Origin: Cyanidioschyzon merolae
Taxonomy: Eukaryota
Strand: one strand, 5' to 3'
Assembly: GCA_000091205.1 (NCBI GenBank)
Contig: AP006492.2
DNA length: 64,000 nt
In this document: positions 9,401 through 63,801 of the stretch, piece by piece
How the letters are laid out: every line of letters starts with the position of its first letter
Numbering within the stretch: position 1 is the first letter of the stretch
Made by a program: the position numbers and the translations under genes
Notes under the pieces: model-generated
Told to the model about the DNA's origin: nothing
Databases searched by the model: none
What the model saw: only the letters and a program-made list of their open reading frames with translations

Positions 9401-10966
9401 ATGTCCTCCACAGTTCTGCGCCTGTTGTCGCCTTATTCGAATATTGTTGAGCGTTCCAGTGGTTTATTCCGCTATTACTGTTCAAGCGTCAGTACATTGA
9501 GTCAGTTGCGACACGCGGGGCAAACGAAAGCTTCTAATTATGATAACAAAACGACGGTTGTCTTCCTCGTTTCTGACAGACCAGGATCCCTGCGGAAAGC
9601 GCTAAGTATTTTCGACGAGGAGCACTTCAACTTAAGCGGCATAAGGAGCCAAGCTTCCCTACCGGATGACTCCGCAAACGATCGAGCGTTTGAAATTACA
9701 GTTAATGCCGAGTACGTGGGTTCCCGCGAGGTTCAGGGAGCTGACTGCGACCACTCGCCGAACAATCACAAGTCTGCACTGCTTTCTCGCGTTGTTCAGA
9801 AACTCGAAGACACAGGCGCGAGAGTCCGCTATATAATGCCCTCCCGTAGCGATGAACAAGGAGCAGTTGAAAAAGGCGGGAGCTGCGAGCGCCCTGTACC
9901 GCCACTGGGCGCTGTTTCAAACGCGGAAGTGGCGCTGAGCATGCCCTGGTTCCCTCGCCGTATCTCGGATCTTGACCGTTTTGCTTCACGTTGTCTCCAG
10001 TTTGGGGCTGAATTGGATGCAGATCACCCCGGATTCAGGGATGACGCGTACCGGAAGCGACGTGAGGTGATTGCGAATGCTGCGGCGCGCTATAAGCACG
10101 GAGATTCACTGTCTGATGTTGACTACACAGCTGCGGAACTCGATACTTGGCGAACAGTTTACACAGAACTCAAAACTCTGCGAGCAACGCATACCTCTCG
10201 ACGTTATCAGCACTCAATTCAGCTCCTTGAACGAGAGATTGGTTTTGGATCATACCGCATCCCACAGCTGTCGGAAGTGAGCAGATTTCTCAGCGAATGC
10301 ACTGGATGGACACTTCGGCCCGTCATGGGTTTACTCTCATCGCGGGACTTTTTGAATGGGCTTGCTTTCCGAGTTTTTCACTCCACGCAATATGTTCGAC
10401 ATCATTCACAGCCGCTCTACACACCGGAACCTGATGTTTGTCACGAGCTTTTAGGTCACATTCCCATGCTCTGTGACGAGGCCTTTTCAGAGTTGAACCA
10501 TCTGCTCGGTCTCGCATCGCTGGGTGCATCTGATGAGGATATTGTCAAGCTTTCGAGGTGCTACTGGTTCAGCGTGGAATTCGGACTCTGTCGCGAGGGA
10601 CCTGCAGAGGAGCTCAGGGCATACGGGGCCGGTCTGCTGTCGTCTTTTGGTGAGCTCAAGTATGCGCTCAGTGGGAAGCCCCAGACGCTCCCATGGAATG
10701 CTTTTGAAGCCGCTAAGCGCGAGTATCCAATCACTGATTACCAACCATCATATTTTGTTGCTCGATCCATAGAGGATGCGGTTGATCAGCTGCGCCTGTT
10801 CACTGAATCCGTAGAGAAACCTTTCGAGCTCCGGTTTAATCCTCATAACCGTAGCGTGTCGATTATTGATGATGCAACTCAGGTCGCTGCTTTTTCTAAC
10901 CAACTTAGCAATGATCTGCGGACTTTGGCGCGTACGCTCAGAAGGCTCGGAGTTTCGACCTCATGA
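9401..10966 (+). CDS. PAH: Biopterin-dependent aromatic amino acid hydroxylase (phenylalanine-4-hydroxylase-like) with an N-terminal ACT regulatory domain. First ATG used; the track starts at a GTG at 9365
   Basis: PDVCHELLGHIPML carries the two iron-ligating His residues. YWFSVEFGLCREG carries the iron-ligating Glu. The GAGLLSSFGEL motif is present. ACT-like VVFLVSDRPGSLRKALSIFDEEHFNL lies upstream. There is a roughly 45 aa S/R-rich N-terminal extension. Confidence 0.85.
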   Translation: MSSTVLRLLSPYSNIVERSSGLFRYYCSSVSTLSQLRHAGQTKASNYDNKTTVVFLVSDRPGSLRKALSIFDEEHFNLSGIRSQASLPDDSANDRAFEITVNAEYVGSREVQGADCDHSPNNHKSALLSRVVQKLEDTGARVRYIMPSRSDEQGAVEKGGSCERPVPPLGAVSNAEVALSMPWFPRRISDLDRFASRCLQFGAELDADHPGFRDDAYRKRREVIANAAARYKHGDSLSDVDYTAAELDTWRTVYTELKTLRATHTSRRYQHSIQLLEREIGFGSYRIPQLSEVSRFLSECTGWTLRPVMGLLSSRDFLNGLAFRVFHSTQYVRHHSQPLYTPEPDVCHELLGHIPMLCDEAFSELNHLLGLASLGASDEDIVKLSRCYWFSVEFGLCREGPAEELRAYGAGLLSSFGELKYALSGKPQTLPWNAFEAAKREYPITDYQPSYFVARSIEDAVDQLRLFTESVEKPFELRFNPHNRSVSIIDDATQVAAFSNQLSNDLRTLARTLRRLGVSTS

Positions 10967-11777
10967 TATCCAGAAACGCTTCCGAGGATACTTGAGATGA
11001 CCGCGCGAGATCGGAGGGCACAGTGATGTCGGACAGCTTCTTATACCGTTCTGCCCTCCAGCGCAACAGTTCTGGATAGCACATTCGCAGATTCTCCTCA
11101 TCCGAGTTTGCCTCGGGAAGTCTGACATACTTATCGCCCCACACGACAGGTTTTGGGCATTTGAAAAAAGTCTCAATCATCTCTGCAATGGACGATTCTG
11201 CAATTTCGAGGTACACAATTAAATAGTCTCGACGAATTTTTTCCTGACATTCCGTGCTGAGATACACGACGCTGCCTGTGGTATCTAACGCGAAATTCGT
11301 TTTCTTGCGAGGCCGCGCATTGGAAGTAATATCTTCCTCTATTTGTAAATATCGCCGCTCGCGCTCACGAAATGTCTCATGAAAAGGAAATCCCATCCAG
11401 CTTGCCAGTGCATCGGTGCCCGCTCCCTGAATATCGCCGAGCTCCTGCTGCAACAACTTTTCGATTTCCTCGTCGACGCTCACGATATCGAAACCGAGTT
11501 CAGTGGCCAATTTCCGAGAGCGGAAACTTTTCCCAGAGTTCGACATGCCAACGAAAGCGATAGAGAGTTCGTTCCGAGTAAGTTTTTCGTCAAAAACCTC
11601 ACGACTAAGTAGTTCTGATACCAACCAAGAGCAAAAACGCTTCCGGGTCCTTTCTCTGTGGTGCGCGATCGTGCTGCACGTGGCTCGCCGAGTGCAGCAA
11701 ACCGCAGCTGCTTCCCTTCCTATCCCCAGCTGCCGCTTCGTGCTCACTGCGAAGCAAGTAATTTTAAAAGCAGTCAT
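10938..11777 (-). CDS. P-loop kinase of the shikimate-kinase-like/NMP-kinase fold with a roughly 70 aa Arg-rich N-terminal presequence. It is convergent with PAH and the two CDS 3' ends overlap by 29 nt
   Basis: Walker A IAFVGMSNSGKSFRSRKLATELGFDIVSVDEEIEKL resembles the shikimate kinase GxxGxGKST...DxDxxIE block. ALDTTGSVVY resembles the SK ATGGG motif. A real ATG start was verified. Confidence 0.5.
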   Translation of the reverse strand: MTAFKITCFAVSTKRQLGIGREAAAVCCTRRATCSTIAHHRERTRKRFCSWLVSELLSREVFDEKLTRNELSIAFVGMSNSGKSFRSRKLATELGFDIVSVDEEIEKLLQQELGDIQGAGTDALASWMGFPFHETFRERERRYLQIEEDITSNARPRKKTNFALDTTGSVVYLSTECQEKIRRDYLIVYLEIAESSIAEMIETFFKCPKPVVWGDKYVRLPEANSDEENLRMCYPELLRWRAERYKKLSDITVPSDLARSSQVSSEAFLDIMRSKLRAF

Positions 11778-12312
11778 TTGTGGAAGTGCACGCCTTCTCT
11801 AGCTCCGACGTCCTTCGATGCGCTTCAGAGACCGACTACTGCACGGCTCCATCGCCAGCCGCCGCTGTTTGCCCCAAATCGGCGTTGATGCGACGTCCAT
11901 TGATCCAGCCTTCGGACGATACCCGCAGAATCCTTGTTTCGAACGCATGTTGTTCGGCGCTCAAATGCTCCCAACTCAATTTTATTCTACCCCCGCTGCT
12001 CCATGCTCCAGGGGATCGAAATAACAATCCAATGATCCGTATATATTGCAGGCGGATAGCCTGTTAGATGTATTCTCTACTGAACAGTGCACGGAGGACT
12101 ACATTCCTTATTCAAATCAGTCATAACACAGTTCTTTGATGGCTGAGGTACACTGCAAGAAAGACGTAGATGCGCTCTGCGTGAAAAACTGGTATTTTCA
12201 GTGCGCGCTTGCGGTAAATGAAAGAAAACAGTCCTTTGCTCACCTTACTAAAACCAAAAAGCGACGGTAGGAGCCACTATGGGCGTCTCTTTTTTCTCAA
12301 CAGCTTGTTCGT

Positions 12313-12890
12313 GTGTTCCTGTACACACTGGGATTCTGTCGCAAAAAAAGAGTCCAGTTCCACACACGGTTATTCTCTACCGGAATCGCAACACCAGGAT
12401 TCCTGAAACTCAGAGATGGGTATGAAGCAAAGGGGCGTCGGTTTGTTTTTCAGTTGATGGGAATTCCTTCGGATGAAACGGTGGTATCGTGTATGGGTAT
12501 TCGAGCAGCAGGGTGTCCATTGTGTTTACGATCGAGCTCGAAGCGAACAAAAGCATCCTTTGATGTGGCTGCAGTAGATTCATTTAGCGGCCTCAGTTTC
12601 GCTCGTACAGAGGGCTCATACCACACCACCCACTTCGTTGAATCATTGAAGACTTTTGCTCTTATGTTTGGCGAAGTTCTTCAATCGGAGAATGTGGTAT
12701 TCCACCACTAACGTTGTTTTCGAGCTTTTGCCGATTTTATAATGTAGAGCTGCTTTTCATTCCTTCGCACGCTCCGTGGTTCGACCCCATCGAAAGGGTG
12801 TTTTCTATCTTGAAAGGTAATGATCGCTACACTGAGCGAAACGATGAAGCTTTCAGCGAGCTGACACATCGGGGCACATGATGCCATTCT
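12313..12890 (+). mobile_element. Decayed Tc1/mariner/IS630-superfamily DDE transposase remnant (C-terminal catalytic region, frameshifted)
   Basis: FARTEGSYHTTHFVESLKTF resembles the (V/I)FQQDNAxxHT block. In a +2 frame, NVELLFIPSHAPWFDPIERVFSILK matches the LPPYSPDLNPIE signature around the third catalytic acidic residue. An in-frame stop follows soon after. Confidence 0.5.
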
Positions 12891-12992
12891 TCCGCAAGTC
12901 CATCTCCCTCCAGAAAGGTTCTTACCTCGGGCATAAGAAGCGCGTTCGTTTTCAAAATTAAAAATCTAAGGGATGAGCTGGGGCGCAGGCTT

Positions 12993-13358
12993 TTGAAGGC
13001 CCAGATAGAGAGAATGCAACGGAGCGCCTCGGCTGTAGTAAAGCCTGGAGAGCTGGCAGAGGACCAAATGGCACTGGGGGCACGAGTTCTGGAAATCCTT
13101 GCACTAAAAAATTCTACCAGTCTTGATAAACGCATGGAGCTCGTGCACCGAGACTTCAACGCCCCCATCCATATCAGGATGTGTGCGGCGCTGAAAATGC
13201 GACCCGAGGTGTTGACGCGAACGAACTTTGTGGGGCAGCCGCTTAGGCTCGAAGTGTGCAAGGAGAAATTGAAGCCGATGGCAGGGGGCCATTCGAAAAA
13301 AACTGTGAGAAGTCTGTGGGTCGTTATTTATTTACCCCCAGGTCGCGAAAGGTTTTAG
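12993..13358 (+). repeat. Copy F1 of a second small dispersed coding-derived repeat (121 aa ORF)
   Basis: LEILALKNSTSLDKRMELVHRDFNAPIHIRMCAALKMRPEVLTRTNFVGQPLRLEV aligns with GGLLALVRTTNDGKKRMELVNHDFNAAVYDRRCAVLKTRPAELTRTKFVEQPFILYV* at 27926-28130. Nucleotide identity is about 75%. Confidence 0.55.
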
Positions 13359-14219
13359 CTCCACTGAGCAGCCGTGGAGCTTTCCCAGTCAAGATGCAAC
13401 GCACAGACCTATATGGAGATGTTACGACCTGCCCAAGCGATAGGGTGCAAACTTGAGTGTCCTTTTTGTTAGACTTTTCCCAACATAGGGTGCTCGGTGA
13501 ATCTGAATGAACTCTGGAGACTGCGGGACTCCAAAGGTGGCTGTGTTGGCGAGAATTATCGCACGGATCGGATTGCTGCCCGTTCAGGCTCGAAAAGAAG
13601 GTTTCTTAGGGGTTTCCACCACGAATGACTTCACCGAAGCCTTACTGCAGCCTGCTGAGAGCGATGTAGATTTATAAGAAGGATTGCAAACGTTCGCGCA
13701 TGAATGCTGAGGTCCTTACTTAATTCTTAGCATCGTTCTTTCAAAACGCTTGCGCGCTTTCATCACTTGCTCGTTGTTCGCTCTTTTCGGAGCAACATGT
13801 TCCGCAAGCACATTTCTTTCAATCAAATTCAAAACTGACTTAGATAGCGATTATGCTGTTCCCCAGAGGAACGAATCCGCCAAAAGTGAAATAAAAGGCA
13901 AGGTTCGAAGCTTCTCCACAAGGACCGAAAGCCATCCTCATCGAGCTCTTATCTGGTATGCGCATGTTCGCAAGGTTCTAGAAAATTACAGCTCAACGGG
14001 TTTAGCATCTCTCGGTTACCCTCTATAGACATCAAGAGCGCTGGAAATCTGCTCTCTGCTGTATCTGGGGAACCATGAGCATCAACACCGTTCGTGGCAA
14101 TCGAGCGTCAGCTACGAGCAAGCGACGCGCGAACAAATTAGGTACCAATCGGAGACACTTTTCAGCCGTTGTGCGCAGTTGTGGCGGAAGACCCTTGCGG
14201 TTATCATTTACCGACAGAG

Positions 14220-28245: not shown

Positions 28246-29322
28246 ATGTGGCTTCAGTATGTTGCCCGTCATACCTTGCAGAACAAACCGTTTGCTGACG
28301 TTTTCCGTAACGACTTGAAAACACAAGGTTTGTCGCGGAAATCCGGCCTAGGTTCGCTGAGGACTTGGTGCTGTTGTGGCTACGCGAATGAGCGGCGGCG
28401 CTTCCTCTGGAGTCTGGGGTGCTTCCTCACGTTCTCGTGTGCCTCTGGTGTACTGGGGGCCCACGGAGGTGAGGCTTCTGGTTCAGCTACGAAATCGTCG
28501 AGGCCGCTTTACGACCAGTGGGCAAGCACCTACGACGCACTGAATGATAGAAACTGCATTACAAAGCTCAGTGGGTTGGACAAAGCACGCGAGCTCGCAA
28601 TATCTTACACTTTTGGCCGAGTGTTAGAGATTGGCTTTGGAACGGGTATATCTCTTCGCTCTTTCATCCAAAGGGAGAAAGACCACCAGAGTCAGGCGTC
28701 GCGCCCACTAAAACCGCTCGTTCAGTCTATTGTTGGTCTCGATGCAAGTTCGGAAATGCTGCAGACAGCCCGGGAACGCGCTTACCATCTCGATGAAGAC
28801 CTACCGTTCGAACTGCGATTAGTGCATGCGGACTTGCTTGCGGCGCTACCATTTGAAGAGGAGGCCTTCGACTGTGTGCTTTGCGCGTATACGCTTTGCA
28901 CCATGCCGGACCTCGATGCAGCACTTCGGACTGCTTTGAGACTCGTCCGCCCTGGCGGACGGCTCATCCTTCTTGACCATGTTCGCTCGAATGCGAAACT
29001 TATTGCAGCATATCAGGATGTGGTGGCGCCTCTCGTCCAGAGAACAGCCAAAGACTGTCGATGGAATCGTGACCTCGAGCGCGCCCTAGACGAGAATCTA
29101 GAAGGGAGTTATCATATTCTGGAAAGTCGTCGTTTCCTAGGTGGTACCGTCGAGCTCTTGGTTGCAGAGCGGTTGGGCGCACATGACCAAAATCGGCTTT
29201 TTCGACGTGAGCCGAGCGCTGCGGATGCTTGGCAATCATGTGTGGACTCACGGAGGTGCTCGGGGCCGGCTTCACGAAATGTCGGTCACGATCCTGGGCT
29301 AGACAGCGTATTGGAATCTTAA
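28246..29322 (+). CDS. Class I SAM-dependent methyltransferase (Methyltransf_11/UbiE-COQ5-like) with an N-terminal hydrophobic anchor or presequence
   Basis: Motif I is VLEIGFGTGISL. The post-I acidic residue is VGLDASSEMLQTA. Motif III is LVRPGGRLILLDH. The hydrophobic stretch is FLWSLGCFLTFSCASGVLGA. First ATG is at 28246; the track starts at a TTG at 28240. Confidence 0.7.
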   Translation: MWLQYVARHTLQNKPFADVFRNDLKTQGLSRKSGLGSLRTWCCCGYANERRRFLWSLGCFLTFSCASGVLGAHGGEASGSATKSSRPLYDQWASTYDALNDRNCITKLSGLDKARELAISYTFGRVLEIGFGTGISLRSFIQREKDHQSQASRPLKPLVQSIVGLDASSEMLQTARERAYHLDEDLPFELRLVHADLLAALPFEEEAFDCVLCAYTLCTMPDLDAALRTALRLVRPGGRLILLDHVRSNAKLIAAYQDVVAPLVQRTAKDCRWNRDLERALDENLEGSYHILESRRFLGGTVELLVAERLGAHDQNRLFRREPSAADAWQSCVDSRRCSGPASRNVGHDPGLDSVLES

Positions 29323-29370
29323 CTAGCCTCAATAAATACTACTGAACGTCAGAATATTACGCACATTGGT

Positions 29371-30441
29371 TTACGAATGCGATATGGCGTATGTGAGGAG
29401 TTCCTCCTGCTCCGCGACAATAACTCGATACCAGTCGAGCTGATGACGCAGCCAATCACATTCGCGCGTGAGTCTTTCGAACTCTATCGCCGTATCTACG
29501 TTCCGATCAATCTCTTTGAAATTGTTCGCGGATTGTTGAAGTCGTCCAACCGTCTTGGCCTTGTGTGCTTTCGGAGAAAACGGGGGATGCCTCTCTGCAG
29601 GAGAGCTGGTATGCGGTTCCCTCGCTGGGCTAGGCTGACTCGCTTTCCGTTTCGCACGATACTGTTGTCGCTGTTTTGTCGCAGAGCAAAAAGGAACCGA
29701 TGGTGCCTTCGCGATGGCGCTCTGCATATCTGAATTTTGTTGCGTAGTGGCGTAGTGCACTGTATTGGTTGTGGCTAGATCATACCTGTTTGTCGCCCGG
29801 TGCGGTACGCTGGATGGCCTCGCACGATCATCACAGTTACGGTTACTTACGCTATGTGTCCTATCAATGAAGCTCCTCAAGTGGTGGATTTCCGACTGAA
29901 GCTGCCGTGACTGACTTTCTGCTTTCAACTTTTTATCCGATAGCTCTGCGTTTTGCCTTCGGAGCGCTTCCACCTGACTCCGGCCTTCCTCTATCAATCT
30001 ACGCATCTGCTCGCGCTCTTTTTCAAATATTTGGCCTGTCTTGGCAAGTTCTGTGCGGACCTGTAGTTTTTCCTCCCGAAGTCGCTCGAGTGTTCCCTGC
30101 TGTGTGTCCAGCTCTGCACGAAGTGCCCGCACCTGTGCGTCATAGTACTGTGCCGTGAGCGGCTGCTCTCTTATTTGATTAATTAGCGCGAATATTACAT
30201 TTAGAGCCTCCGCAAGGGCATATTCAGTAGCTGGTGGTTTTTGAAGCTTCCCTGTCTGAGGTCCTTCGTCGGAATTACGCTCAGCAAGGGGTTGTCTCCG
30301 CTCCGAAAGCTCCGCTTGTTCTGGAGGCAGAATAAGCCTTGGCGCTATTCCTATGCTCGTTAACTCTTCGTTCAGAAAGTTGATACAGGATCGAATAGAG
30401 TTCACGGAGCAAAAGCGGCTTCGGTCGCTATTCGAGGTCAT
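29371..30441 (-). CDS. Hypothetical coiled-coil protein (first ATG used; the track begins at a GTG at 30585)
   Basis: Long heptad region (LRAELDTQQGTLERLREEKLQVRTELAKTGQIFEKEREQMRRLIEEGRSQVEALRRQNAELSDKKLKAESQSRQLQSEIHHLR). ATG verified at 30439-30441. Confidence 0.45.
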   Translation of the reverse strand: MTSNSDRSRFCSVNSIRSCINFLNEELTSIGIAPRLILPPEQAELSERRQPLAERNSDEGPQTGKLQKPPATEYALAEALNVIFALINQIREQPLTAQYYDAQVRALRAELDTQQGTLERLREEKLQVRTELAKTGQIFEKEREQMRRLIEEGRSQVEALRRQNAELSDKKLKAESQSRQLQSEIHHLRSFIDRTHSVSNRNCDDRARPSSVPHRATNRYDLATTNTVHYATTQQNSDMQSAIAKAPSVPFCSATKQRQQYRAKRKASQPSPAREPHTSSPAERHPPFSPKAHKAKTVGRLQQSANNFKEIDRNVDTAIEFERLTRECDWLRHQLDWYRVIVAEQEELLTYAISHS

Positions 30442-35619: not shown

Positions 35620-37146
35620 ATGCTCCCAGCTAGCGTTGGAGGATCAATCAGCTTGGAAACAGACAACCGTGGCGAGCGCACCGAGCGGGCTGCACGGAGA
35701 AGCTTCCGAGGTCGCCTAGCGTTCCTAGGTCCCAAACTTGGGGCTTGGGGACCCACGCAGAGCTGTTCGGCTGCTCCAAACTGTGCGATATCTGAAGCAC
35801 AGCCACGGAAAGGAGCTGGTCGCGGGACGGCTTACCGGCAGGGGAACTCTCTGCGGAACGTGAGGTTCGTTTTGAACGCGAACCAGGAGACGGGCGCTGT
35901 TGGACCAGCGGAAGCCCCCCATCGACGGCTGTCTAACTGGGGAGGCCTTGGCGGCGCATACGACACAAAAGTCTACCCGGCCAAGAGTTTGTGCTCTCAC
36001 TGCGGCTTGTGTGATACCCGCTACATCACCTATGTGCGCGACAGCTGCGCGTTCCTGAACCAGCACATTGCAGAGCTCGAGCAAAAGGTGCATGGACGCA
36101 GTCGCGCTCTGGATTCCGAAGATGAGCTCTATTTTGGTGTATTCCAGAGCATGCTGGTTGCACGCAAGAAGAAGCCTATTGCTGGCGCCCAGTGGACAGG
36201 CATTGTTTCATCGCTTGCTATTGCAATGCTAGAAAGCGGTCTCGTTGAGGGTGTGGTGTGCGTCCAGAGCAGCAAGGACGATCGTTTCAAGCCCGTGCCG
36301 GTAATTGCACGCAATCGAGCTGAAATCTTAGCGGCTAGGGTGAACAAGCCGACGCTGTCACCAAACCTGTCCGTGCTGGACGCAGTAGAACGAAGCGGTA
36401 TCAAACGTCTGCTTTTCATTGGCGTAGGCTGTCAGGTGGAAGCGCTCCGATCCGTTCAAGATCGAATCGGACTCGAAAAACTTTACGTTTTAGGGACTCC
36501 ATGCGTGGATAATGTGACGCGAGCCGGGCTTCAAAAGTTTCTCGATACGACCTCATCGTCACCGGAGACTGTCGTCTACTATGAGTTCATGCAGGACTTT
36601 CGGGTCCATTTTAAACACGATGATTCCGTGATTGGAGGCCCTGGAAGAAAGTGGGACGAAATCGTACCTTTTTTTGCGCTGAACACACAAGAGTTGAAGG
36701 AAGTTTTCGCTCCATCATGTCTATCTTGTTTTGACTATGTGAATGGTTTAGCGGATCTCGTGGTGGGTTACATGGGGGCACCTTTCGGATGGCAATGGCT
36801 TGTTGCACGGAACGAAACCGGACTGGAGATGCTAGAGCTCGCCCGACAGGTCTGCGGTCTGGAGGAGGGCCCCGTCGACGCATGCGGCGATCGACGCGCT
36901 GCTGTCCAGCAGTCGATCACTGCCTACGATCGAGCGCTTACCCTGCCTCGATGGATCGCTGAGTTTTTGGCCATCATCATCGGTAAGATTGGCCCAAAGG
37001 GTCTGGAGTATGCTCGCTTCTCCATCGACAGCCATTTTACCAGAAATTATCTTTACGTGCGGCGCCGATACCCGGAGAAGCTCGATGCTCATGTTCCCGA
37101 GTACGCGAAGCGTATCGTGTCCCAGTACAAGTTGCCGGATACATGA
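35620..37146 (+). CDS. HCAR: FrhB-like Fe-S flavoprotein of the HCAR/BciB family: 7-hydroxymethyl chlorophyll a reductase or ferredoxin-dependent divinyl reductase. It has a roughly 110 aa transit-peptide-like N-terminus
   Basis: PAKSLCSHCGLCDTRYITYVRDSCAFL is the Cys cluster. HGRSRALDSEDELYFGVFQSMLVARKKKPIAGAQWTGIVSSLAIAMLESGLVEGVVCVQS, LLFIGVGCQVEALRSV, LYVLGTPCVDN and GPKGLEYARFSIDSHFTRNYLYV follow. The protein is colinear with plant HCAR. Confidence 0.8.
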   Translation: MLPASVGGSISLETDNRGERTERAARRSFRGRLAFLGPKLGAWGPTQSCSAAPNCAISEAQPRKGAGRGTAYRQGNSLRNVRFVLNANQETGAVGPAEAPHRRLSNWGGLGGAYDTKVYPAKSLCSHCGLCDTRYITYVRDSCAFLNQHIAELEQKVHGRSRALDSEDELYFGVFQSMLVARKKKPIAGAQWTGIVSSLAIAMLESGLVEGVVCVQSSKDDRFKPVPVIARNRAEILAARVNKPTLSPNLSVLDAVERSGIKRLLFIGVGCQVEALRSVQDRIGLEKLYVLGTPCVDNVTRAGLQKFLDTTSSSPETVVYYEFMQDFRVHFKHDDSVIGGPGRKWDEIVPFFALNTQELKEVFAPSCLSCFDYVNGLADLVVGYMGAPFGWQWLVARNETGLEMLELARQVCGLEEGPVDACGDRRAAVQQSITAYDRALTLPRWIAEFLAIIIGKIGPKGLEYARFSIDSHFTRNYLYVRRRYPEKLDAHVPEYAKRIVSQYKLPDT

Positions 37147-37184
37147 AATTGAAGTTCCATGCGGCTTGGAATGAGCTGATTGCG

Positions 37185-39326
37185 TTAAGGCACCGGATGC
37201 GATTCTGGTGCTGGATTGCTTGTCTGCTCACCACGTCTGCGATACGTAAGTTCGAGGTCTTTCGGACTTTTCCAGATGAGCCAGCGCACGGTGCCCAGGT
37301 TCATATTGGGATCCAAAACGTGGCCTCGGCAGAGTATTTCGATCTCCTGCGGGGGCGGGACTATCGGCTCGGACGAGAGGGCATCTGTGGCGGCCCGGCT
37401 GGCGCCCAGGGCCCCTCGGTGACCACCAGGCGAGGCCCGTTGATTCGCAGACGTTGTCTGTTCGGAGAGCTTCGCGGAAACGTACGCCATGGCTTTGCGG
37501 ATTCGCAATATTCGAGGTGCAGTCAGTTTGCTCTGGCGAAGGCTCTGTAATGTGCTCCCAATGGCGGGTTCCAGACCGAACGATATCTTGACTTGCTCTT
37601 TGGCAAGCGTGCGATTTCGTCCGACAATGTCGATGACCCATGAAGGCATGAGCCGCTCTTCAATTTCGGATCCATCAAAGCGATGCGCAAGCTTATGAAT
37701 CAGAGGTTCGATGTGGCCCTGCTCGTTGACCACCACCGGAATGTCGCCGGGGAAAACAAATGGTGTAAGTACCGCAGCTTTCTTCTCCGCCGTCGTTGAT
37801 CCTGTATCACTGGATTGGCCCGAACCTGTATTCAAGGTTTCCGCTACATGAGGGTTGCGCTTTAACCACTGCTTTCGCCACCAGTGAAAGAGCCCTCGGA
37901 GCGTGTGCTCGCCAATATTGACTTTTTGGTCTTCGGATTCGGCCTCCAGACCAATATCCACTGCGTAGACATCTGCGTCGCTCACAGTGCTTTTGCGCAA
38001 ACGGATACCGAGGCTACCCATACGAGTGTCCACGTTGAACCAGGACGGCACGTAAACGAGCTCATCGATCTCTGCGATGACATCATCAAGGCTTCGATCG
38101 CGACCGAAACTTCGAATGTTCAGCGCTCGACATACATCCCACAAGTGAATGCCATGTTCGCTATCTCGGACCAAAACGTGACGTCGATTGTTCAAGACTC
38201 GATAGTCGACTACGGATGGGAGCCCTTCAATGACGCATTCATGAGTCGGATCTGGATGTTTCATGGAAACGCATCGGAGTTGAGATTCACCAAATCCGAT
38301 CCATAAATTGGAGGAATAGTTGGCTGTCGGTGCAATGCAAACATCTAAAACAGCCTTAGACCAGTCACATACCTGCTCTCTGCGCGCCGAGTGCCCGTCG
38401 GGCTCGAACAGCCTTCGTGTCTCTTTCGAATTCCGGAGATCGGTGCGGCAGACAGTCCCGTCACGTGAACCGGACACGAACCACGAAAAAGACGGTGGTA
38501 CATCAAGCGACCACACAGAGTCTTCATGAACGTGGTGGAAGACACTGAGGCAACGCTGTTGCCGAATATCCCAGAGCCGAACCGCCCCGTCGCTGCCGCC
38601 ACTAAGACACAAAAGTCCGTTCGAAGATAGTCGAATGCGACGAACGATATCAGCATGTCCATGCAGCCTCATGACATCTCGACTCGTTCGCAAGTCGTAC
38701 AGCCGAATAGATCGATCTGAGTGCCCTGCGGCGACAACAAAACAGTCTGCCGAGCCGTTCAGTGCACCATCCCGATGAAGCGCTGAAGCAATGCAATAGA
38801 TCGACTCATTTTCATCGCCTCTCATTTCAGAAAAGGCCACCATACGATCTAGATCCCACAGAATGATACGATTGTCGTATGCGGTGCTCACGAACTGTCG
38901 GCTACTGACGTTCGCGAGAGCTCGCACATAGTCCTGGTGTTCAACGAGCGTCGCAAGGCACGCTCCGGCCGATAGGTCCCAAACTTTCACGGTCGCATCA
39001 GAGGAGCACGAAACCAGCGTAGGATAGCCTCCTGGGGACACAACGTCGTTCACCCAGTCGGTATGCTCTTCCAGAGAGCGCAAATGTGCCTGCTTAGCGA
39101 TCCGCCCCTGTTGCGCTCTATGGTCGATGGACCACAGCCGCACTGACCCATCCCGACCGGCTGAAACGAGAAGGTAGGCGTCCGACTGAGATTCGGGCTT
39201 CTGTAAGGCCAGCACAGCGTTAATGCCGTAGCGATGCTGTTGCTCTGGAAAGCGACACCAGTACGTAACCGTCCGCTGCTCAGACCTGGCGTTCCGCGGG
39301 AACGACAAACTTTGCGCGTCCGTCAT
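37185..39326 (-). CDS. WDR48: WD40-repeat protein WDR48/UAF1 orthologue (deubiquitinase cofactor)
   Basis: HTDWVNDVV, LVSCSSDATVKVWD, SIRLYDLRT, GGSDGAVRLWDIRQQRC, VYVPSWFNVD and C-terminal LCRGHVLDPNMNLGTVRWLIWKS match the WDR48 N-terminal WD repeats and SLD region. ATG verified. Confidence 0.85.
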   Translation of the reverse strand: MTDAQSLSFPRNARSEQRTVTYWCRFPEQQHRYGINAVLALQKPESQSDAYLLVSAGRDGSVRLWSIDHRAQQGRIAKQAHLRSLEEHTDWVNDVVSPGGYPTLVSCSSDATVKVWDLSAGACLATLVEHQDYVRALANVSSRQFVSTAYDNRIILWDLDRMVAFSEMRGDENESIYCIASALHRDGALNGSADCFVVAAGHSDRSIRLYDLRTSRDVMRLHGHADIVRRIRLSSNGLLCLSGGSDGAVRLWDIRQQRCLSVFHHVHEDSVWSLDVPPSFSWFVSGSRDGTVCRTDLRNSKETRRLFEPDGHSARREQVCDWSKAVLDVCIAPTANYSSNLWIGFGESQLRCVSMKHPDPTHECVIEGLPSVVDYRVLNNRRHVLVRDSEHGIHLWDVCRALNIRSFGRDRSLDDVIAEIDELVYVPSWFNVDTRMGSLGIRLRKSTVSDADVYAVDIGLEAESEDQKVNIGEHTLRGLFHWWRKQWLKRNPHVAETLNTGSGQSSDTGSTTAEKKAAVLTPFVFPGDIPVVVNEQGHIEPLIHKLAHRFDGSEIEERLMPSWVIDIVGRNRTLAKEQVKISFGLEPAIGSTLQSLRQSKLTAPRILRIRKAMAYVSAKLSEQTTSANQRASPGGHRGALGASRAATDALSSEPIVPPPQEIEILCRGHVLDPNMNLGTVRWLIWKSPKDLELTYRRRGEQTSNPAPESHPVP

Positions 39327-46225: not shown

Positions 46226-47395
46226 ATGTTTATCCAATTGGAAGCATTCTGTGTTCAACCTTTAACTGGACGCGAATTTTGTGCTGGGAGGCCTCTCGTG
46301 TGCACGCAACCTAGCAGGTGGCAATTGCAGGCGTTTTCGCGGCGGCAGCTTTCGGTGCGAACCGGGAGCACGCTCCGAATGAGCAGTGCGGGGGGTACGG
46401 TGGCGGCTGACATTGACTATCGTAGCGTTCCAGATGTTCTCAAAGAAATACTACGGCGAAAACAGCAGGAAGTTGCCAGTCTGAAGGCTGAGGTCGCCCA
46501 GGCAGGTGCTGAGCACCCGCTGCAGCGTCGCCTCGATGCAGCCGCGGCTGGTCAGATTCCAAAGTCACGTCAGTTTAGCAGCGCAATTCGTAAACCGAAA
46601 GGAAGCATCTCTGTTATTGCGGAGATTAAGCGACGGTCACCGAGCTCTGGTTTAATTGCCGAAATCCCGGACGTGCGACAGCTCAGTGACCTGTACTACA
46701 ACGGAGGCGCAGCCGCAATCTCGGTACTAACAGATGCTGCCTTCGATGGAACACTGGATGATCTGCAAACCGTGGTGAAGCATCAACAAAAATTTCGAGG
46801 AAGATATCCCGGTCCTTGTCCGGTCCTCCGCAAGGACTTTATCATTGATGAAATCCAAATCGCTGAAGCTGCAGAGCGAGGTGCAGCAGCAGTGCTTTTG
46901 ATTGTTGCTGCAATTGGGGAAGCAGGGCTGCGCAAACTGCTTGAGGCAACACATCGGCACGGTCTTGAAGCACTCGTAGAGATTCATGACGAAGAAGAGC
47001 TGGAGATCGCAAAGGCTGCCGGTGCAGAGATCATCGGCACTAACGCACGCGACCTGCGCACTTTCAACGTCGACCTCAACCGTTGTTTCGAGCTCATCGG
47101 CCGGTATCCCCCGAATGTGATTCCAGTGGCGGAAAGCGGTATCCACGATGTGATGGATGCTTGGCGTTTGCGGGACGCTGGCTACTCGTCGATTCTAGTT
47201 GGTGAGGCACTCATTCGCGCCGCAGAATCCTCGAAACTACCGAGTAATGCTTACCAATCGAGCTTTAACGAAGCGTATGGATTGTTGAGAGCCTTTACGT
47301 CAAAAGGAAGCACCAAGTTTGGGCCAATTAGCACCACGAGAATTTTCGGGAAAGGTGAAGGAGCAAAAGAGTCGCTTGGGTATTTGGAGATGTAA
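46226..47395 (+). CDS. Indole-3-glycerol phosphate synthase, stand-alone (not fused to PRAI/TrpG), with a roughly 70 aa transit-peptide-like N-terminus
   Basis: KGSISVIAEIKRRSPSSG, ISVLTDAAFDG, LRKDFIIDEIQIAEA, GAAAVLLIVAAI, EALVEIHDEEELE, IIGTNARDLRTF and IPVAESGI are the IGPS TIM-barrel motifs. Confidence 0.85.
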   Translation: MFIQLEAFCVQPLTGREFCAGRPLVCTQPSRWQLQAFSRRQLSVRTGSTLRMSSAGGTVAADIDYRSVPDVLKEILRRKQQEVASLKAEVAQAGAEHPLQRRLDAAAAGQIPKSRQFSSAIRKPKGSISVIAEIKRRSPSSGLIAEIPDVRQLSDLYYNGGAAAISVLTDAAFDGTLDDLQTVVKHQQKFRGRYPGPCPVLRKDFIIDEIQIAEAAERGAAAVLLIVAAIGEAGLRKLLEATHRHGLEALVEIHDEEELEIAKAAGAEIIGTNARDLRTFNVDLNRCFELIGRYPPNVIPVAESGIHDVMDAWRLRDAGYSSILVGEALIRAAESSKLPSNAYQSSFNEAYGLLRAFTSKGSTKFGPISTTRIFGKGEGAKESLGYLEM

Positions 47396-49773: not shown

Positions 49774-50476
49774 AGTTTGATTCCAGATTTTGGACACACG
49801 ATGAAACCCCGCTCCTTTTCATCACGACATTACAGTCTGAGGTACAGAGAGCACTCGACAGGGCGTTTACTGTTCACACCATAACATCCACTTGGTTGCT
49901 GCGGGGAATTCCAGCGCTCCGCATGCATCCATCAAGGAATCGCTGGCAACTGGACATTACCCAGGCACCACTGCATACATTTCAAAATTTGCGCACCTTT
50001 TCATGCCGCAGCGCTCAGGATGCTCGGTGCGTCGGTCATCCACACCGCTGTGAACACTCGAATCCGGTATCTTGGTCGAGAAACGAGTCCGCGTTGCCAG
50101 GTATCGCCACGGCGTCTTGGGGCACTTGCGCCGCAGACCGGTGTACACCAGCTGCGCCCTGTGCTCGCGTTATAGCTATGCTTGCGACGGTCTGTTCCAG
50201 TGAATCGCTGTACTGCACTGCCGATGGACTCGTACCGATCACCTTGAACACGAGCAACATCCACAGCAAACTGCAAAAACATCGATCATACAGTGTCGGC
50301 ATAAGCGTGAAACGCGCTGGGATTCCGATGCCTCGCGAAGCTCGGCGCTCACCGTGGGCACTCGGCATCGCGGGCGCTTGTCGCGAGCGCACCCAGGCAC
50401 AGACCCCCGACACAACGTCGCAATCAGGCACGATACCGTGAAAAGCACCTGGCAAACGCGGCGCTCTCGTGTGCTG

Positions 50477-53400
50477 CTAGCATCCGGAATCCATGCCGGC
50501 TGCGAGCCATTGCCGTAACGTGTCCCCGAATACCGCCGGCAAAGCGGCAATCTCCTCTACAATGACATAGAAAGGAAAGGGAAAATCTTCCAGGTAGCGT
50601 CGCACCTGCATGCGTCCACCCGGGGCAAAACCGACCTGCTTCATATCGAGAACAGAGGTACGCCGGACCGCGCTCGACGCCTGCTGCTCTTGTTCTCGAG
50701 TGCCAGCAACCTGATCCAATATGAAAAACACGATCCGCAGACGTTGTGCATTCGCTTCTCGAATGAGCGCGCGGAGGGCGTCTCGCTCTCCTAGTCGCCC
50801 GTCGGAAAGAATCAGCAACAGCTGCCAAGAATCGATCACACCGGCTTGCTGCTCCCGTGCCTCTCGGAACAACGCCGACGCACATTCTAACAGAGCGACC
50901 ACATTGGTCGCCTGCTGCTGGAACGTAAACTGACCAAGCAGCTGATCACCAACAGAGCCAGCGGCGGGTATTCCGGCGTGTAAGGAATGCACGACTTGTG
51001 CATCGCAACCGAAACGGATAACACCCAGATGTGCCAGTTCGAGTCGCTGCAGCGCCGCTGCAACCACCACCAGAGACTCTAGTGCCAAGCGAGACGCACC
51101 TGATTCGTGCATACTCGCAGAGTCGTCGACCGCAACAACGATATCGTATCGACGACGGTCTGGACGAATACGACGCATCCAGATACGATCGCGGGTGTAG
51201 TTGCTGGCCACATAATCAATGAGACGACGCATATGGAGCCGCTTCCCGGTGCGAAAGTCGCCTGCAAAACGCGTCATTTGGTTGTACTCGAGGACGGGTT
51301 CCAGTCGACGGCTGAGGTGTGCAATCGTCGCCTCATGAGAACGTTCAAGTGCGAACCAGGTGATCAAATCAGCATCAGCAGCCGCTTGTTCCAGCGAGTA
51401 TCGCGTATGGTCCGCGTCCATGTGCTGTGGTGCGATATCCTGGTTGTCATCCTTGTCGTTTTCGTCGTCGCGATGATGCAGGGACTCTTGGCGTTGCGTT
51501 GCGCGCTGGCGTTCAGGTTCTGGTGTCTTCGCGGTAGACGTCTGGCGTCCTGGTGACGCTTCCGCTGGTGACAGTGTCGACGACGCGCTCCACTGTGCAT
51601 TGCGATGGCTTGCAGCTGGTACCACCAGGTCGTCGACATTCGAACCGGTCATCTGCTGCACCTGCGGCTGATGCGGCACGCCCGTTGGATCCTGGTTGTC
51701 GCTCCAGAGATCGTCCGTCAACGCAGGCATACGATGTTGTTCATCTGCCGCAGCTGGTTTGTTCTGTTCCAACGAAGTTGATGTTTCCCCAGTGTACGGG
51801 TATGGCAAGTCAAGGGGTGTTGCGGTTGGCGCGGCTCCACTAGACCATTCTGCTGCTACGCTTGACGCAACATGAGCCTGCCGGTCCGGAGCGAGTGACA
51901 CCGCCGCCTCTGCTGCATACGCGGGTGCGCCTTGCGCCGAGGCGCTCCGCTGCTCTTCGGTGCTTTCCCAGGATGCTGGCTGGGGCGGCGTTGTCCAGTG
52001 CATAGCGTCCTGGCTCCAGATCGTCTCCGGCACATTCCTGGCTGCGAGCGGCATCGTTGTCGCAGCATCGACCTCGGTATGAGCCGCTCCGGGCCTCTCC
52101 CTGGGATTTTCCGATACCGCTTGCATGACCGGTGCCTCTGCGGATGCTGGAAGCGTACCTGACGACGCGGCTGCGGCTCCAGTTGCTGCTGCGGATTGCG
52201 ACGGTGCACTTGCAGCGTTTCCAGACTCGCCTCCGGTAGCCAGTTCGGGGAGCGCAGCATTGGCTAGTATCGAGGATTCAGAGACGGGCGAGCGGCCTGT
52301 GTGCTCTCTCGTCTCCGAGGTATCCCGAGCGTCAGACTGAGACCTCTCGGCATCTGCGGGAGACGCGTTCATCGTATCTCCATTGTCGGACAGAGCGTCC
52401 TCGTCTGAATGCAACGCGCTCCTCGCTTCGGCCTCCTCCGAGGCGTCAACAGAGACAGAGTCGACAGCAGGTTCGTCGCATTCCCAGTCTTCAGCGAATG
52501 GCAAGCCTTCAGATGCCTCTGACACCCTATCCGGAGACGAGTTGCCGTCCGGATGCACCAGGTCCTCGAGGATGTCGGGAGCGTCCTGCTCGGGCTCGTT
52601 CAGCGACGCTTCCGGGCTCATGGAGGGTTGCGCAGGCCCCGTGACTGCACACGGTAACCGCGGGGCAGCTTCTGCATCCACGGTGCTCTCGTTGCCAGAT
52701 GCAACCACCTCCGCTGGTGCATCTGTCATCGAGTCGGGTGCCGCTTCCTCCATACTCGTCGCAGCTAGAGCTGTTGCTGAGGTCGCTGTCCTGTCAGCAG
52801 GCAACGCGCGCTCCTCCGGGCAGGGCGTTGGTGCAGTCTCCGTCGCGGGCGGCGCTTCCGTGCCCCCTGGGTTGTTCATGTCACCGTCGACGTCGATGTC
52901 GTCTTCTGGGGCTTGCCCCAGAGTCTCGTTCTCTGTAAACGGTGCCGAGAACGCCGCTGTGGTGAGCAGCTCCTCATTCGATTCGAGGTCATCAGAGGAG
53001 CGCGGCACGCCCTGCTCCGCTGCACTATTCGTCGCTCTGTCGGAGGCGAAGAGCTCCTCACCAAGCTCGGATGCTGCCAGGTCGGCGGAACAGTCACGAG
53101 CATCCGCATTCAATGCTCCGGTGTCAGCAAAGCCCGCTCCCTGGCGCATCACATCCTTACCAACTGCATCGCGCTGTGCATCCACTGCTGCATTGTGAAG
53201 CAGCATCAGCGAACGATCCGCAAGACACAACAAAACCTGAACGATACGCACAAGCGACCAGTGCAGACGCCGCAACATGGCCAGTTTGCGCTCAAGTGCG
53301 CCATGCTGGTGCTCAGAGACATTCGCAGTGCCGTGCACTTGTCCCAGGCACAATACAAACGCTTCGCTTGACGACGGACGCCAGTGCAGGAGCTCCATCA

Positions 53401-63759: not shown

Positions 63760-63801
<42 letters not shown>

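Follow-up and report, generated by a model that had tools for sequence, protein, structure and literature searches.

Gene layout at the locus

Two genes lie tail-to-tail on chromosome 10 of Cyanidioschyzon merolae 10D, within the 64,000-nucleotide stretch of DNA that was analysed (the window), and are transcribed convergently. The plus-strand gene encodes a protein 100% identical to C. merolae 10D BAM80205.1, previously annotated as 'phenylalanine hydroxylase' (PAH). The product of the minus-strand gene is 100% identical to BAM80206.1 (CYME_CMJ067C, hereafter CMJ067C), which is annotated as "hypothetical protein". Judged by these identities, and by orthologues in which the conserved C-terminal helices run into the overlap, both open reading frames are real genes. 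An earlier note made from the DNA alone had placed both frames, and a 29-nt tail-to-tail overlap between them, exactly where they are given in Table 1, and these positions were borne out. The same note had counted an IGPS gene at 46226 as a third member of an aromatic pathway nearby. That gene is real (46226..47395; Pfam IGPS, 219.6 bits), but it is 35 kb away with about 15 unrelated genes between, and adds nothing to the interpretation of the locus.

Table 1. Coordinates of the genes and features at the locus (positions within the window).
Feature	Position	Strand	Description
PAH coding sequence	9401..10966	+	521 aa plus stop; open frame from 9365, ATG at 9401; BAM80205.1
PAH N-terminal extension, residues 1-50, ahead of ACT	9401..9550	+	6 Arg/Lys, 2 Asp/Glu, 14 Ser/Thr; Ser/Thr-rich, mildly basic
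PAH ACT core, residues 51-86 matched by Pfam	9551..9658	+	Domain goes on with a lineage-specific insertion
PAH catalytic Biopterin_H domain, residues 182-513	9944..10939	+	H348 10442-10444, H353 10457-10459, E393 10577-10579
PAH C-terminal tetramerisation-type helix, about residues 488-516, ...QLSNDLRTLARTLRRL	10862..10948	+	Placed by alignment with tetrameric PAHs
Coding overlap, 29 nt	10938..10966		PAH L513 (part)-S521 plus stop; kinase I271 (part)-F279 plus stop
CMJ067C coding sequence, SK-fold P-loop kinase	10938..11777	-	279 aa plus stop; putative homoserine kinase; BAM80206.1
Kinase family motif D165-T-T-G-S169	11271..11285	-	Replaces the S/A-x-G-G-G shikimate-binding loop of shikimate kinase; invariant across the family
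Kinase Walker A / P-loop, G77-M-S-N-S-G-K83-S84	11526..11549	-	Family motif VGMSNxGKS; invariant in 91 sequences; aligns to M. tuberculosis SK G9-S16
Kinase presequence, residues 1-57	11607..11777	-	11 Arg/Lys vs 3 Asp/Glu; Phe 4, Phe 9; pLDDT about 50

Phenylalanine hydroxylase

In the Pfam search, Biopterin_H (PF00351; cut-off 22.7) matched PAH with 480.4 bits, and 330 of the 331 profile positions were covered. ACT gave 24.4 bits (E 2.4e-5) and fell just short of its gathering score, 27. PF01842 is present in the precomputed annotation of an identical protein. The enzyme was aligned with PAHs of Galdieria, amoebozoans, insects and mammals; the Fe ligands H348, H353 and E393 were invariant, as were the ACT residues G62, L64, N77, I81 and S83. 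Identity to amoebozoan, fungal and metazoan ACT-PAHs was 43-47%, and the C-terminal 30 residues lined up with the part of tetrameric PAHs that holds the terminal helix. The best NCBIfam model was TIGR01268 (tetrameric PAH) at 487 bits, against 454 for Trp hydroxylase, 422 for Tyr hydroxylase and 151 for bacterial monomeric PAH. All scores to the PAH, Trp hydroxylase and Tyr hydroxylase models were below the trusted cut-offs of 655-705 (705 for TIGR01268), and Phe, not Tyr or Trp, is the presumed substrate. By these matches the protein is an ordinary, full-length eukaryote-type PAH in which the ACT and catalytic domains, a tetramerisation-type helix and the Fe ligands are all present, and its earlier description as an ACT-domain enzyme with a complete set of iron ligands was correct. 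Most likely it would convert Phe to Tyr with a pterin cofactor and non-haem iron.

The ACT and catalytic domains, the C-terminal helix and the 2-His-1-Glu iron site are shared with the eukaryotic tetrameric PAHs (human, Dictyostelium, Acanthamoeba; TIGR01268; identity 42-47%), from which the C. merolae enzyme differs by a longer N-terminus, by an insertion in the ACT/linker region and, throughout the Cyanidioschyzon clade, by 'IRSQ' at the position of the 'IESRPS' motif. The N-terminus exceeds those of amoebozoan and mammalian PAHs by 15-40 residues and varies in length among Cyanidiophyceae; its composition would suit either a presequence or a regulatory tail. The plastid PAHs of non-flowering plants and green algae are likewise aromatic amino acid hydroxylases of photosynthetic eukaryotes, but reportedly have no ACT domain and are similar to bacterial monomeric PAH, whereas the C. 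merolae enzyme scored far higher with the tetrameric than with the monomeric model (487 vs 151 bits). Since Galdieria PAH is also of the ACT type, cyanidiophytes have this type as a rule, and the locus is not unusual in this respect.

Fold, presequence and active site of the kinase

The best Pfam match of CMJ067C was SKI, at 27.2 bits against a gathering score of 22.1, with AAA_33 at 25.5 bits; adenylate and gluconate kinase families gave no match in this search, and no GHMP family was found among Pfam or NCBIfam matches at E<=1. An AlphaFold model (pLDDT 86.9) was compared with the PDB using Foldseek. All of the top 30 matches were shikimate kinases, with about 20% identity and target TM-scores of 0.6-0.7, and adenylate kinases ranked below every one of them. 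The earlier note had called the protein shikimate-kinase-like and had proposed a SKI profile search, in which a higher score for an adenylate or gluconate kinase profile would speak against that label. As SKI was the best Pfam family and the top 30 structures were shikimate kinases, no such preference was seen.

Residues 1-57 form the Arg-rich presequence that had been noticed before, disordered in the model. In the alignment it was present in all red-algal members and in none of the bacterial or archaeal homologues, and every aligned red-algal member had a Phe near the N-terminus, which may be the rhodophyte transit-peptide Phe motif. The segment is probably a plastid transit peptide; it is these sequence features that suggest a plastid location.

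The closest solved structures are those of the shikimate kinases AroK/AroL (EC 2.7.1.71; PF01202; PDB 1KAG, 2IYQ, 4Y0A), which have the fold and the Walker A motif in common with CMJ067C. Residues were compared with M. tuberculosis shikimate kinase (MtSK) using hhalign. The catalytic Asp (D34=D102), the carboxylate-binding Arg (R136=R241) and the equivalent of G80 (G168) are kept, and the basic residue of the lid is conserved in character (R117 to K209). R58 is replaced by L144, a near-invariant Leu, G79 and G81 by T167 and S169, and D32 by S100. The D165-S169 motif maps to MtSK S77 and G79-G81, so that GGG reads T-G-S. Inserts were found in the substrate-binding lobe, which has extra helices, and in the lid, which is longer. 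The set of shikimate-binding residues (MtSK D34, R58, G79-G81, R136) is thus incomplete: D34 and R136 are kept, and R58 and the GGG motif are lost, here and across the CMJ067C family. What stands of the earlier label is the fold and the best Pfam family; two of the shikimate-binding elements that it would imply are absent.

Extent and relatives of the kinase family

Among 1.84 billion representatives, the CMJ067C family profile matched 1253 proteins at E<=1e-3 and 415 at E<=1e-30, and the family is small and sharply bounded, with about 415 clusters. Its hosts are red algae, CPR bacteria, Woesearchaeota and some (Maricaulales-type) Alphaproteobacteria. In a crude neighbour-joining tree the red-algal kinases formed one clade nested among CPR sequences. 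Members are named 'shikimate kinase' in UniProt and IMG, and a Robiginitomaculum member is named 'nucleoside/nucleotide kinase family protein' by NCBI PGAP.

Scores to the curated shikimate kinase equivalog models were low. The best was 27.4 bits to NF010553 (cut-off 204), and the others were 23 bits or less, against cut-offs of 161-560. The top NCBIfam match was NF040667, a Desulfovibrio SK-fold homoserine kinase model, at 38.6 bits (E 9e-10). This model matched 88 of the 91 family members searched, with a best E-value of 8.3e-13, whereas each shikimate kinase model matched 13-19 of them. None of the 91 members reached a curated equivalog cut-off. On these grounds the CMJ067C family is distinct from canonical shikimate kinase.

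NF040667 ('hom_kin_desulfo') describes DvMF_0971 of D. vulgaris Miyazaki F, likewise a P-loop kinase of the SK superfamily that was mis-annotated as shikimate kinase. DvMF_0971 replaces the GHMP enzyme ThrB in threonine synthesis; it was validated as a homoserine kinase by mutants that threonine rescued and by its ability to complement E. coli thrB- (Price et al., 2018; PMC5764234). CMJ067C was not placed in NF040667 because its score is far below the cut-off of 197 bits. It matches profile positions 2-110 of 163 only, family members have about 215 aa compared with about 163 aa for the DvMF_0971 type, and the family has invariant motifs of its own (VGMSNxGKS, WMGxP, DTTGS, PKPVxWG, CYPxLLxxRxxxY). 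The hosts listed above also differ from those of the DvMF_0971 type. The two would be sister families at best, and the function of the CMJ067C family may differ.

Genomic context of prokaryotic members

The dominant neighbour of the kinase gene in prokaryotes is thrC, the threonine synthase gene, which adjoins it in 41 of 81 loci and occurs in both gene orders. The two genes are on the same strand in 38 of the 41 pairs, with gaps of -56 to +195 nt, mostly -4 to +25, and the linked loci span Alphaproteobacteria and several CPR lineages. About half of the 81 loci, mainly from one Paceibacterota clade and Woesearchaeota, lack threonine synthase within 6 kb. These loci showed no other conserved neighbour; a DAO-family neighbour was seen only in near-identical genomes. 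No aro genes were found among the conserved neighbours at the 81 loci.

Fusions of two architectures were also found. In the first, represented by P0395 and P0419/P0511, the order is aspartokinase-ACT-homoserine dehydrogenase-kinase; in the second, represented by P0410, the kinase precedes aspartokinase-ACT-homoserine dehydrogenase. Threonine synthase comes next after the P0395 fusion gene, overlapping it by 1 nt. The arrangements with the kinase adjacent to thrC, fused to thrA, or fused to thrA and followed by thrC mirror thrA-thrB-thrC. The context of the family is thus threonine synthesis and not the chorismate synthesis of AroK/AroL, and it points to the reaction catalysed by DvMF_0971.

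The 3' overlap

The orthologous kinase and PAH genes overlap by 62 nt in Cyanidiococcus (L001), 86 nt in another cyanidiophyte (L002-L005) and 59 nt in Cyanidium caldarium (L006). With the 29 nt of C. merolae, the overlap is kept in four cyanidiophyte lineages at varying length, and in all four it lies within a syntenic block made up of a Miro GTPase, the kinase, PAH and a gene whose product has about 500 aa. It is ancestral to these lineages. The neighbourhood was not found in Galdieria or Porphyridium, where the two genes are unlinked.

Five well-supported convergent gene pairs are present in the window, with stop-to-stop gaps of -29, 35, 38, 48 and 488 nt; in four of the five the stops are less than 50 nt apart. 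Given these gaps, near-zero tail-to-tail spacing is a habit of the genome. An unrelated ADIP-like/methyltransferase pair in Cyanidium overlaps by 62 nt.

The kinase stop codon is antisense within the codons of the PAH C-terminal helix. We propose that the 29-nt overlap is an ancestral by-product of extreme tail-to-tail packing that would have become 'locked', the kinase stop codon falling within the tetramerisation-helix codons in all four lineages and a poorly conserved PAH tail continuing over the end of the kinase gene for 8-27 codons. The 3' ends of the two mRNAs would have to overlap; there is no sign of co-regulation at the pathway level.

Proposed function and alternative explanations

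Most likely, CMJ067C is a plastid-targeted, non-GHMP homoserine kinase; this prediction draws on its family relationships, the gene context of its relatives and its presequence. It would phosphorylate the gamma-hydroxyl of L-homoserine with ATP, yielding O-phosphohomoserine. Threonine synthase acts on O-phosphohomoserine, as does cystathionine gamma-synthase where methionine is made by the plant-type route. The proposed reaction and the operon logic are those of GHMP ThrB (E. coli thrABC; plant plastid HSK), and CMJ067C is proposed to act in the plastid, like plant HSK. The P-loop fold is unrelated to that of GHMP ThrB, and CMJ067C would be a non-orthologous displacement. It would supply a step for which C. 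merolae has no gene model according to the survey of Bromke and Hesse (2015; PMC4523565), the one paper from which the absence of a GHMP homoserine kinase from this alga is taken. The locus would then consist of two functionally unrelated, convergent nuclear genes. The whole explanation, in which PAH is ordinary, CMJ067C is a plastid-targeted homoserine kinase and the overlap is a by-product of packing, is considered quite probable.

The reading closest to the earlier note is that CMJ067C is the shikimate kinase of the plastid, or else an SK-like paralogue with a regulatory role, forming a co-regulated aromatic pair with PAH through the shared 3' sequence. It would account for the best Pfam match, for the closest solved structures, for the retained equivalents of D34, R136 and G80 and for the automatic names in UniProt and IMG, and the gene pair with its overlap is conserved in four cyanidiophyte lineages. 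Against it, scores to all shikimate kinase equivalog models are about 27 bits or less, the family as a whole has other residues in place of R58 and of two Gly in the GGG loop, and its members are found in operons with thrC or fused to aspartokinase-homoserine dehydrogenase and, at the loci examined, never beside aro genes. Many members also belong to CPR bacteria and DPANN archaea, which to our knowledge generally lack the shikimate pathway. The pairing itself is weakened by the unlinked genes of Galdieria and Porphyridium and by the tight convergent spacing found generally in the genome. We regard this reading as very unlikely, although CMJ067C might be a real or bifunctional shikimate kinase if C. 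merolae has no canonical one elsewhere. Quite unlikely, too, is a kinase family for another substrate, either a hydroxy-amino acid (4-hydroxythreonine, threonine, serine) or a nucleoside, with the link to thrC reflecting a side-pathway or regulation. The PGAP name of the Robiginitomaculum member, the half of the prokaryotic loci without an adjoining thrC and the failure of every member to reach a curated equivalog cut-off are in line with it, and biosynthesis in CPR and DPANN is so reduced that a full threonine pathway is not assured. Homoserine dehydrogenase is the enzyme that makes homoserine, however, and its fusion to the kinase in two architectures, followed by thrC, is exactly the logic of thrA-thrB-thrC. 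Moreover, loci without thrC offer no other conserved partner, and adenylate kinases came after all shikimate kinases in the fold search.

CMJ067C, read as a homoserine kinase, probably stands outside the aromatic pathway, and the aromatic-amino-acid pair of the earlier note is not upheld, given the threonine operons and fusions and the separate genes of Galdieria and Porphyridium. The suggestion in that note that 3'-end processing or regulation is coupled within a pathway pair thereby loses its premise, and tight convergent spacing is general in the genome. The overlap could still be functional in itself, through antisense or transcriptional-interference coupling of PAH and the kinase. It has been retained in four lineages though the proteins are only 43-64% identical to those of C. 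merolae, and each stop codon lies inside the coding sequence of the other gene, so that the mature 3' ends would have to be complementary over at least the overlap. Its length is not conserved, however, and varies by drift of the unconserved PAH tail; most well-supported convergent pairs in the window are nearly as close; and retention is explained by the damage to both genes that a rearrangement breaking the overlap would cause. A function of the overlap is therefore held to be unlikely. Packing, the preferred explanation, makes it an example of extreme compaction freezing convergent neighbours together; PAH and the overlap are otherwise ordinary.

Implications

Homoserine kinase is among the steps most often "missing" from genome-based reconstructions of amino-acid biosynthesis; in GapMind the step was of low confidence in 20% of 148 prototrophic prokaryotes (PMC7311316). 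Members of the CMJ067C family are now labelled "shikimate kinase", "nucleoside/nucleotide kinase" or "hypothetical" in public databases, a warning that a match to PF01202/COG0703 is insufficient to call a shikimate kinase. With its operon and fusion evidence, the family is a testable candidate for homoserine kinase in red algae and in poorly understood prokaryotic lineages. The prediction could be settled quickly, since genes can be targeted in C. merolae and complementing E. coli thrB- is routine. We think it rather likely that CMJ067C and its relatives constitute a previously unrecognised family of SK-fold homoserine kinases, in red-algal plastids and in CPR, Woesearchaeota and Maricaulales-type Alphaproteobacteria, and that the red-algal gene derives from a single ancient bacterial transfer. 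If true, CMJ067C would be the first homoserine kinase outside the GHMP family to be recognised in eukaryotes, and the gap reported for C. merolae would be filled.

Annotation of the locus

The kinase ORF of the window was matched to Cyanidioschyzon merolae 10D CMJ067C (CYME_CMJ067C; BAM80206.1, XP_005534813.1, UniProt M1URF8) with 100% identity over 279 residues. This protein is listed as 'hypothetical protein' by NCBI and carries the automatic name 'Shikimate kinase' in UniProt. The convergent ORF belonged to the C. merolae cluster BAM80205.1, 'phenylalanine hydroxylase' (PAH). An earlier note, made from the sequence alone, had described an ACT-type PAH with its iron ligands, lying tail to tail with a shikimate-kinase-like gene and sharing 29 nt with it; this description was accurate, since ORF coordinates and Pfam matches agree. 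Literature searches returned no paper naming CMJ067C and none joining 'phenylalanine hydroxylase' with Cyanidioschyzon.

Positions of the gene pair and of other features in the window
Feature	Position	Strand	Size or spacing
PAH ORF	9365/9401..10966	+	521 aa counted from ATG at 9401
Kinase ORF (CMJ067C), convergent to PAH	10938..11777	-	279 aa
PAH/kinase coding overlap	10938..10966	both	29 nt
ORF-poor spacer upstream of the kinase gene	11778..14000		
Short ORF within the spacer	12714..12881	+	
Methyltransferase/ADIP-like convergent pair	28246..30441		stops 48 nt apart
FrhB-family/WD40-DUF3337 convergent pair	35620..39326		stops 38 nt apart
FrhB_FdhB-family protein	35620..37146	+	508 aa
172-aa ORF/midasin-like giant convergent pair	49923..63736		stops 35 nt apart
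Midasin/Rea1-like ORF	50477..63946	-	about 4,400-4,490 aa

The other window genes encoded a Miro GTPase, a GLTSCR1-domain protein, a methyltransferase, an ADIP-like protein, an Exo_endo_phos protein, an FrhB-family protein, a WD40/DUF3337 protein, IGPS, a Band_7 protein, a TYW2/TRM5 methyltransferase and a midasin-like AAA_5 giant, a content that fits a compact, nearly intron-free red-algal chromosome. Rfam and tRNA scans across the window found no tRNA or Rfam RNA genes. The midasin-like protein was encoded by a single ORF with dynein-related AAA_5 domains, and at its position G+C jumped from about 50-54% to 57-62%. The FrhB_FdhB-family protein was red-algal and resembled the F420-hydrogenase beta subunit; divinyl chlorophyllide reductase of the cyanobacterial type and the plant 7-hydroxymethyl chlorophyll a reductase are among the members of this family. 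The short ORF in the spacer ended in '...LLFIPSHAPWFDPIERVFSILKG', which appears similar to the motif at the C-terminus of DDE (Tc1/mariner- or IS630-like) transposases; the ORF could be what is left of a decayed mobile element.

PAH covered the entire Pfam Biopterin_H profile (480 bits) and gave a weak ACT match (24.4 bits, E 2.4e-5; the gathering score is 27). The best NCBIfam model was TIGR01268 (tetrameric PAH, 487 bits), followed by the tryptophan (454), tyrosine (422) and bacterial monomeric phenylalanine (151-216) hydroxylase models; scores against every NCBIfam hydroxylase model were under the trusted cut-off. The nearest relatives beyond Cyanidiophyceae were ACT-containing PAHs of Amoebozoa, early-diverging fungi and animals (42-47% identity), and an annotated orthologue was found in Galdieria sulphuraria (46%). 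When aligned with ACT-containing relatives, iron ligands H348, H353 and E393 and five ACT-domain positions were invariant and the C-terminal helix was conserved; an insertion in the ACT/linker region was found in the Cyanidioschyzon clade. The N-terminus (50 residues, mildly basic, rich in Ser/Thr) exceeded amoebozoan and mammalian lengths and may serve for targeting or as a regulatory tail. The PAH gene is an ordinary member of a known, previously annotated family, and the interest of the locus is the kinase.

Convergent overlap

Orthologous kinase/PAH pairs were convergent and overlapping in Cyanidiococcus yangmingshanensis (locus L001, 62 nt), a further cyanidiophyte (L002-L005, 86 nt) and Cyanidium caldarium (L006, 59 nt), within a conserved block of Miro GTPase, kinase, PAH and a gene of about 500 aa. 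The stop codon of the kinase gene fell, antisense, in the PAH sequence encoding the C-terminal helix in each of the four lineages. Overlap length varies because the PAH tail past this stop, 8-27 poorly conserved residues, extends over the last helix of the kinase.

Close packing was general in the window. Well-supported convergent pairs had stop-to-stop distances of -29, +35, +38, +48 and +488 nt, and divergent and tandem spacers measured 149-5600 nt. These pairs suggest that near-zero tail-to-tail spacing is a rule across the C. merolae genome. The ADIP-like/methyltransferase pair, separated by a gap in C. merolae, overlapped by 62 nt in Cyanidium. The PAH/kinase overlap is thus nothing special to that pair. 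Its simplest reading is ancestral: the overlap would have arisen by tail-to-tail compaction in the ancestor that the Cyanidioschyzon/Cyanidium lineages share, and once formed it would resist rearrangement. Overlap of the two 3' UTRs is unavoidable, and comparison of gene layout in the window and in relatives showed nothing linking it to pathway regulation. The proposal in the earlier note of an aromatic-amino-acid pair with coupled 3' regulation found no support, since prokaryotic relatives of the kinase occur in a threonine-pathway context and tight convergent spacing is common in the window. IGPS, counted there as a third pathway member, is a real gene; about 15 unrelated genes and a distance of 35 kb separate it from the pair, and its proximity was taken as coincidence.

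PAH and kinase were unlinked in Porphyridium, where unrelated genes flanked the kinase, and in Galdieria, where PAH lay between an amino-acid transporter and tryptophan 2,3-dioxygenase. The latter region (Galdieria sulphuraria L007, KB454514.1, 6482..11471) resembles a neighbourhood for aromatic-amino-acid catabolism. In Galdieria phlegrea, one gene model (P0132, 868 aa) joined Aa_trans to PAH.

Kinase family and fold

Red-algal homologues of CMJ067C were found in Cyanidiococcus (70% identity), a further cyanidiophyte (61%), Cyanidium caldarium (49%) and, at 39-48% in the homology search, Purpureofilum, Rhodosorus, Porphyridium and Gracilariopsis. Homologues of about 215 aa were found in CPR bacteria and Woesearchaeota (37-43%), and a scan taking one genome per prokaryotic species yielded members from the free-living Alphaproteobacteria Robiginitomaculum antarcticum DSM 21748, Litorimonas, Hellea and Algimonas. 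When 1.84 billion representatives were searched exhaustively with the family profile, no more than 415 clusters passed E<=1e-30 and 1253 passed E<=1e-3, which makes this a small family with sharp limits. Invariant motifs were VGMSNxGKS, D102, WMGxP, E147, DTTGS, PKPVxWG and CYPxLLxxRxxxY (CMJ067C numbering).

The likeness to shikimate kinase (SK) seen in the earlier note holds for the fold. SKI was the best Pfam family (27.2 bits, gathering score 22.1), with AAA_33 second. An AlphaFold model computed from an alignment of 91 sequences was confident for residues 58-279 (mean pLDDT 86.9) and disordered for residues 1-57. The best 30 Foldseek matches in the PDB were all shikimate kinases (about 20% identity, target TM-score 0.6-0.7), adenylate kinases ranked next, and the PDB sequence best matching the family profile was E. 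coli AroK (E 2.6e-8). An adenylate or gluconate kinase identity was rejected: neither was among the Pfam matches, and such folds ranked beneath every shikimate kinase.

An N-terminal extension was present in every red-algal member, and prokaryotic members were without it. In CMJ067C it contained 11 Arg/Lys vs 3 Asp/Glu, in agreement with the Arg-rich presequence noted earlier, and Phe at positions 4 and 9; every red-algal member had an aligned Phe close to its N-terminus. Rhodophyte transit peptides contain Phe, and the extension resembles these. Plant homoserine kinase is plastidial. In a crude neighbour-joining tree without support values, red-algal sequences formed one clade nested within Gracilibacteria/Peribacteria-type CPR, and not with Alphaproteobacteria or cyanobacteria, which hints at an ancient transfer of the gene from a bacterium to a red alga.

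Comparison with shikimate kinase

Residues were mapped to M. tuberculosis shikimate kinase (MtSK) by hhalign profile alignment (probability 92.7%). MtSK K15, D34, E61 and R136 were kept as K83, D102, E147 and R241, and R117 was changed to another basic residue, K209. In contrast, D32 was replaced by S100, R58 (which binds the shikimate carboxylate) by L144, G79-G80-G81 by T167-G168-S169, and S77 by an invariant D165; the lid was lengthened and the substrate-binding lobe contained inserts. Scores against all SK equivalog HMMs were 27 bits or less, with cut-offs of 161-560. The mapping, inserts, low equivalog scores and fold match therefore indicate a kinase that retains the SK fold and phosphoryl-transfer machinery, with a rebuilt substrate pocket. 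A literature search for a separate canonical shikimate kinase gene in C. merolae gave no usable published evidence.

Proposed assignment as homoserine kinase

The top NCBIfam match of the kinase was NF040667, 'hom_kin_desulfo' (38.6 bits, E 9e-10). This model was matched by 88 of 91 family members, and each SK model by 13-19. NF040667 represents DvMF_0971 of Desulfovibrio vulgaris, annotated as shikimate kinase and shown to be a homoserine kinase (Price et al., 2018; PMC5764234): threonine rescues its mutants, and E. coli thrB- was complemented (PMC5764234). Because 38.6 bits is far under the cut-off of 197, the CMJ067C family is at most a relative of this model, not a member. The likeness is to a known kind of enzyme on the same SK fold; the CMJ067C family differs in motifs, length and a very different taxonomic range that includes eukaryotes.

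Threonine synthase (thrC) directly adjoined the kinase ORF in 41 of 81 prokaryotic loci, on the same strand in 38 and divergently in 3. Gaps ranged from -56 to +195 nt, the majority from -4 to +25, and the neighbour was confirmed by Pfam as Thr_synth_N + PALP + THR4_C. The order was thrC then kinase in Alphaproteobacteria and part of Gracilibacteria and Peribacteria, and kinase then thrC in other CPR groups; arrangement states were dispersed across the family tree. The Robiginitomaculum unit consisted of a regulator, thrC and the kinase, the last two overlapping by 1 nt. In about half of the 81 loci thrC was absent within 6 kb; these came mainly from one Paceibacterota clade and Woesearchaeota (L011-L029, L057, L069-L088), which had no consistently informative neighbour. 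An FAD-oxidoreductase (DAO) gene beside the kinase in L011 was rejected as a conserved partner, being repeated only among near-identical genomes, as were the Woesearchaeota neighbours, which, judged by sequence, appear to be plain local synteny.

Fusions in three representative clusters retained the family motifs in their kinase domains. The kinase was C-terminal to aspartokinase-ACT-homoserine dehydrogenase in P0395 (1031 aa; L093 781..3876) and P0419/P0511, and N-terminal to the same domains in P0410 (1055 aa). Directly after the P0395 gene, on its 350-kb contig, came threonine synthase, overlapping it by 1 nt. This locus reproduces the order thrA-thrB-thrC, with the kinase-family domain at the position of homoserine kinase (ThrB).

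CMJ067C is proposed as a candidate plastid homoserine kinase on five lines of evidence, among them the NF040667 match, thrC adjacency, the fusions and the N-terminal extension; from these sequence comparisons the homoserine-kinase assignment is considered probable. D102 would then serve as catalytic base, K83 and K209 would act at the ATP phosphates, and R241 would bind the substrate carboxylate. From conservation alone, the family-specific acidic residues E147 and/or D165 may bind the alpha-amino group.

Family members are named 'hypothetical' or 'nucleoside/nucleotide kinase family protein' by NCBI and 'shikimate kinase' by UniProt and IMG; homoserine kinase was absent from all three sets of names, and a search of the literature since 2018 found no paper proposing it for this family. 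GapMind counts ThrB among the gaps most often left unexplained in prototrophs (PMC7311316). CMJ067C is a strong candidate, open to direct testing, for the homoserine kinase that is missing in red algae and several prokaryotic lineages.
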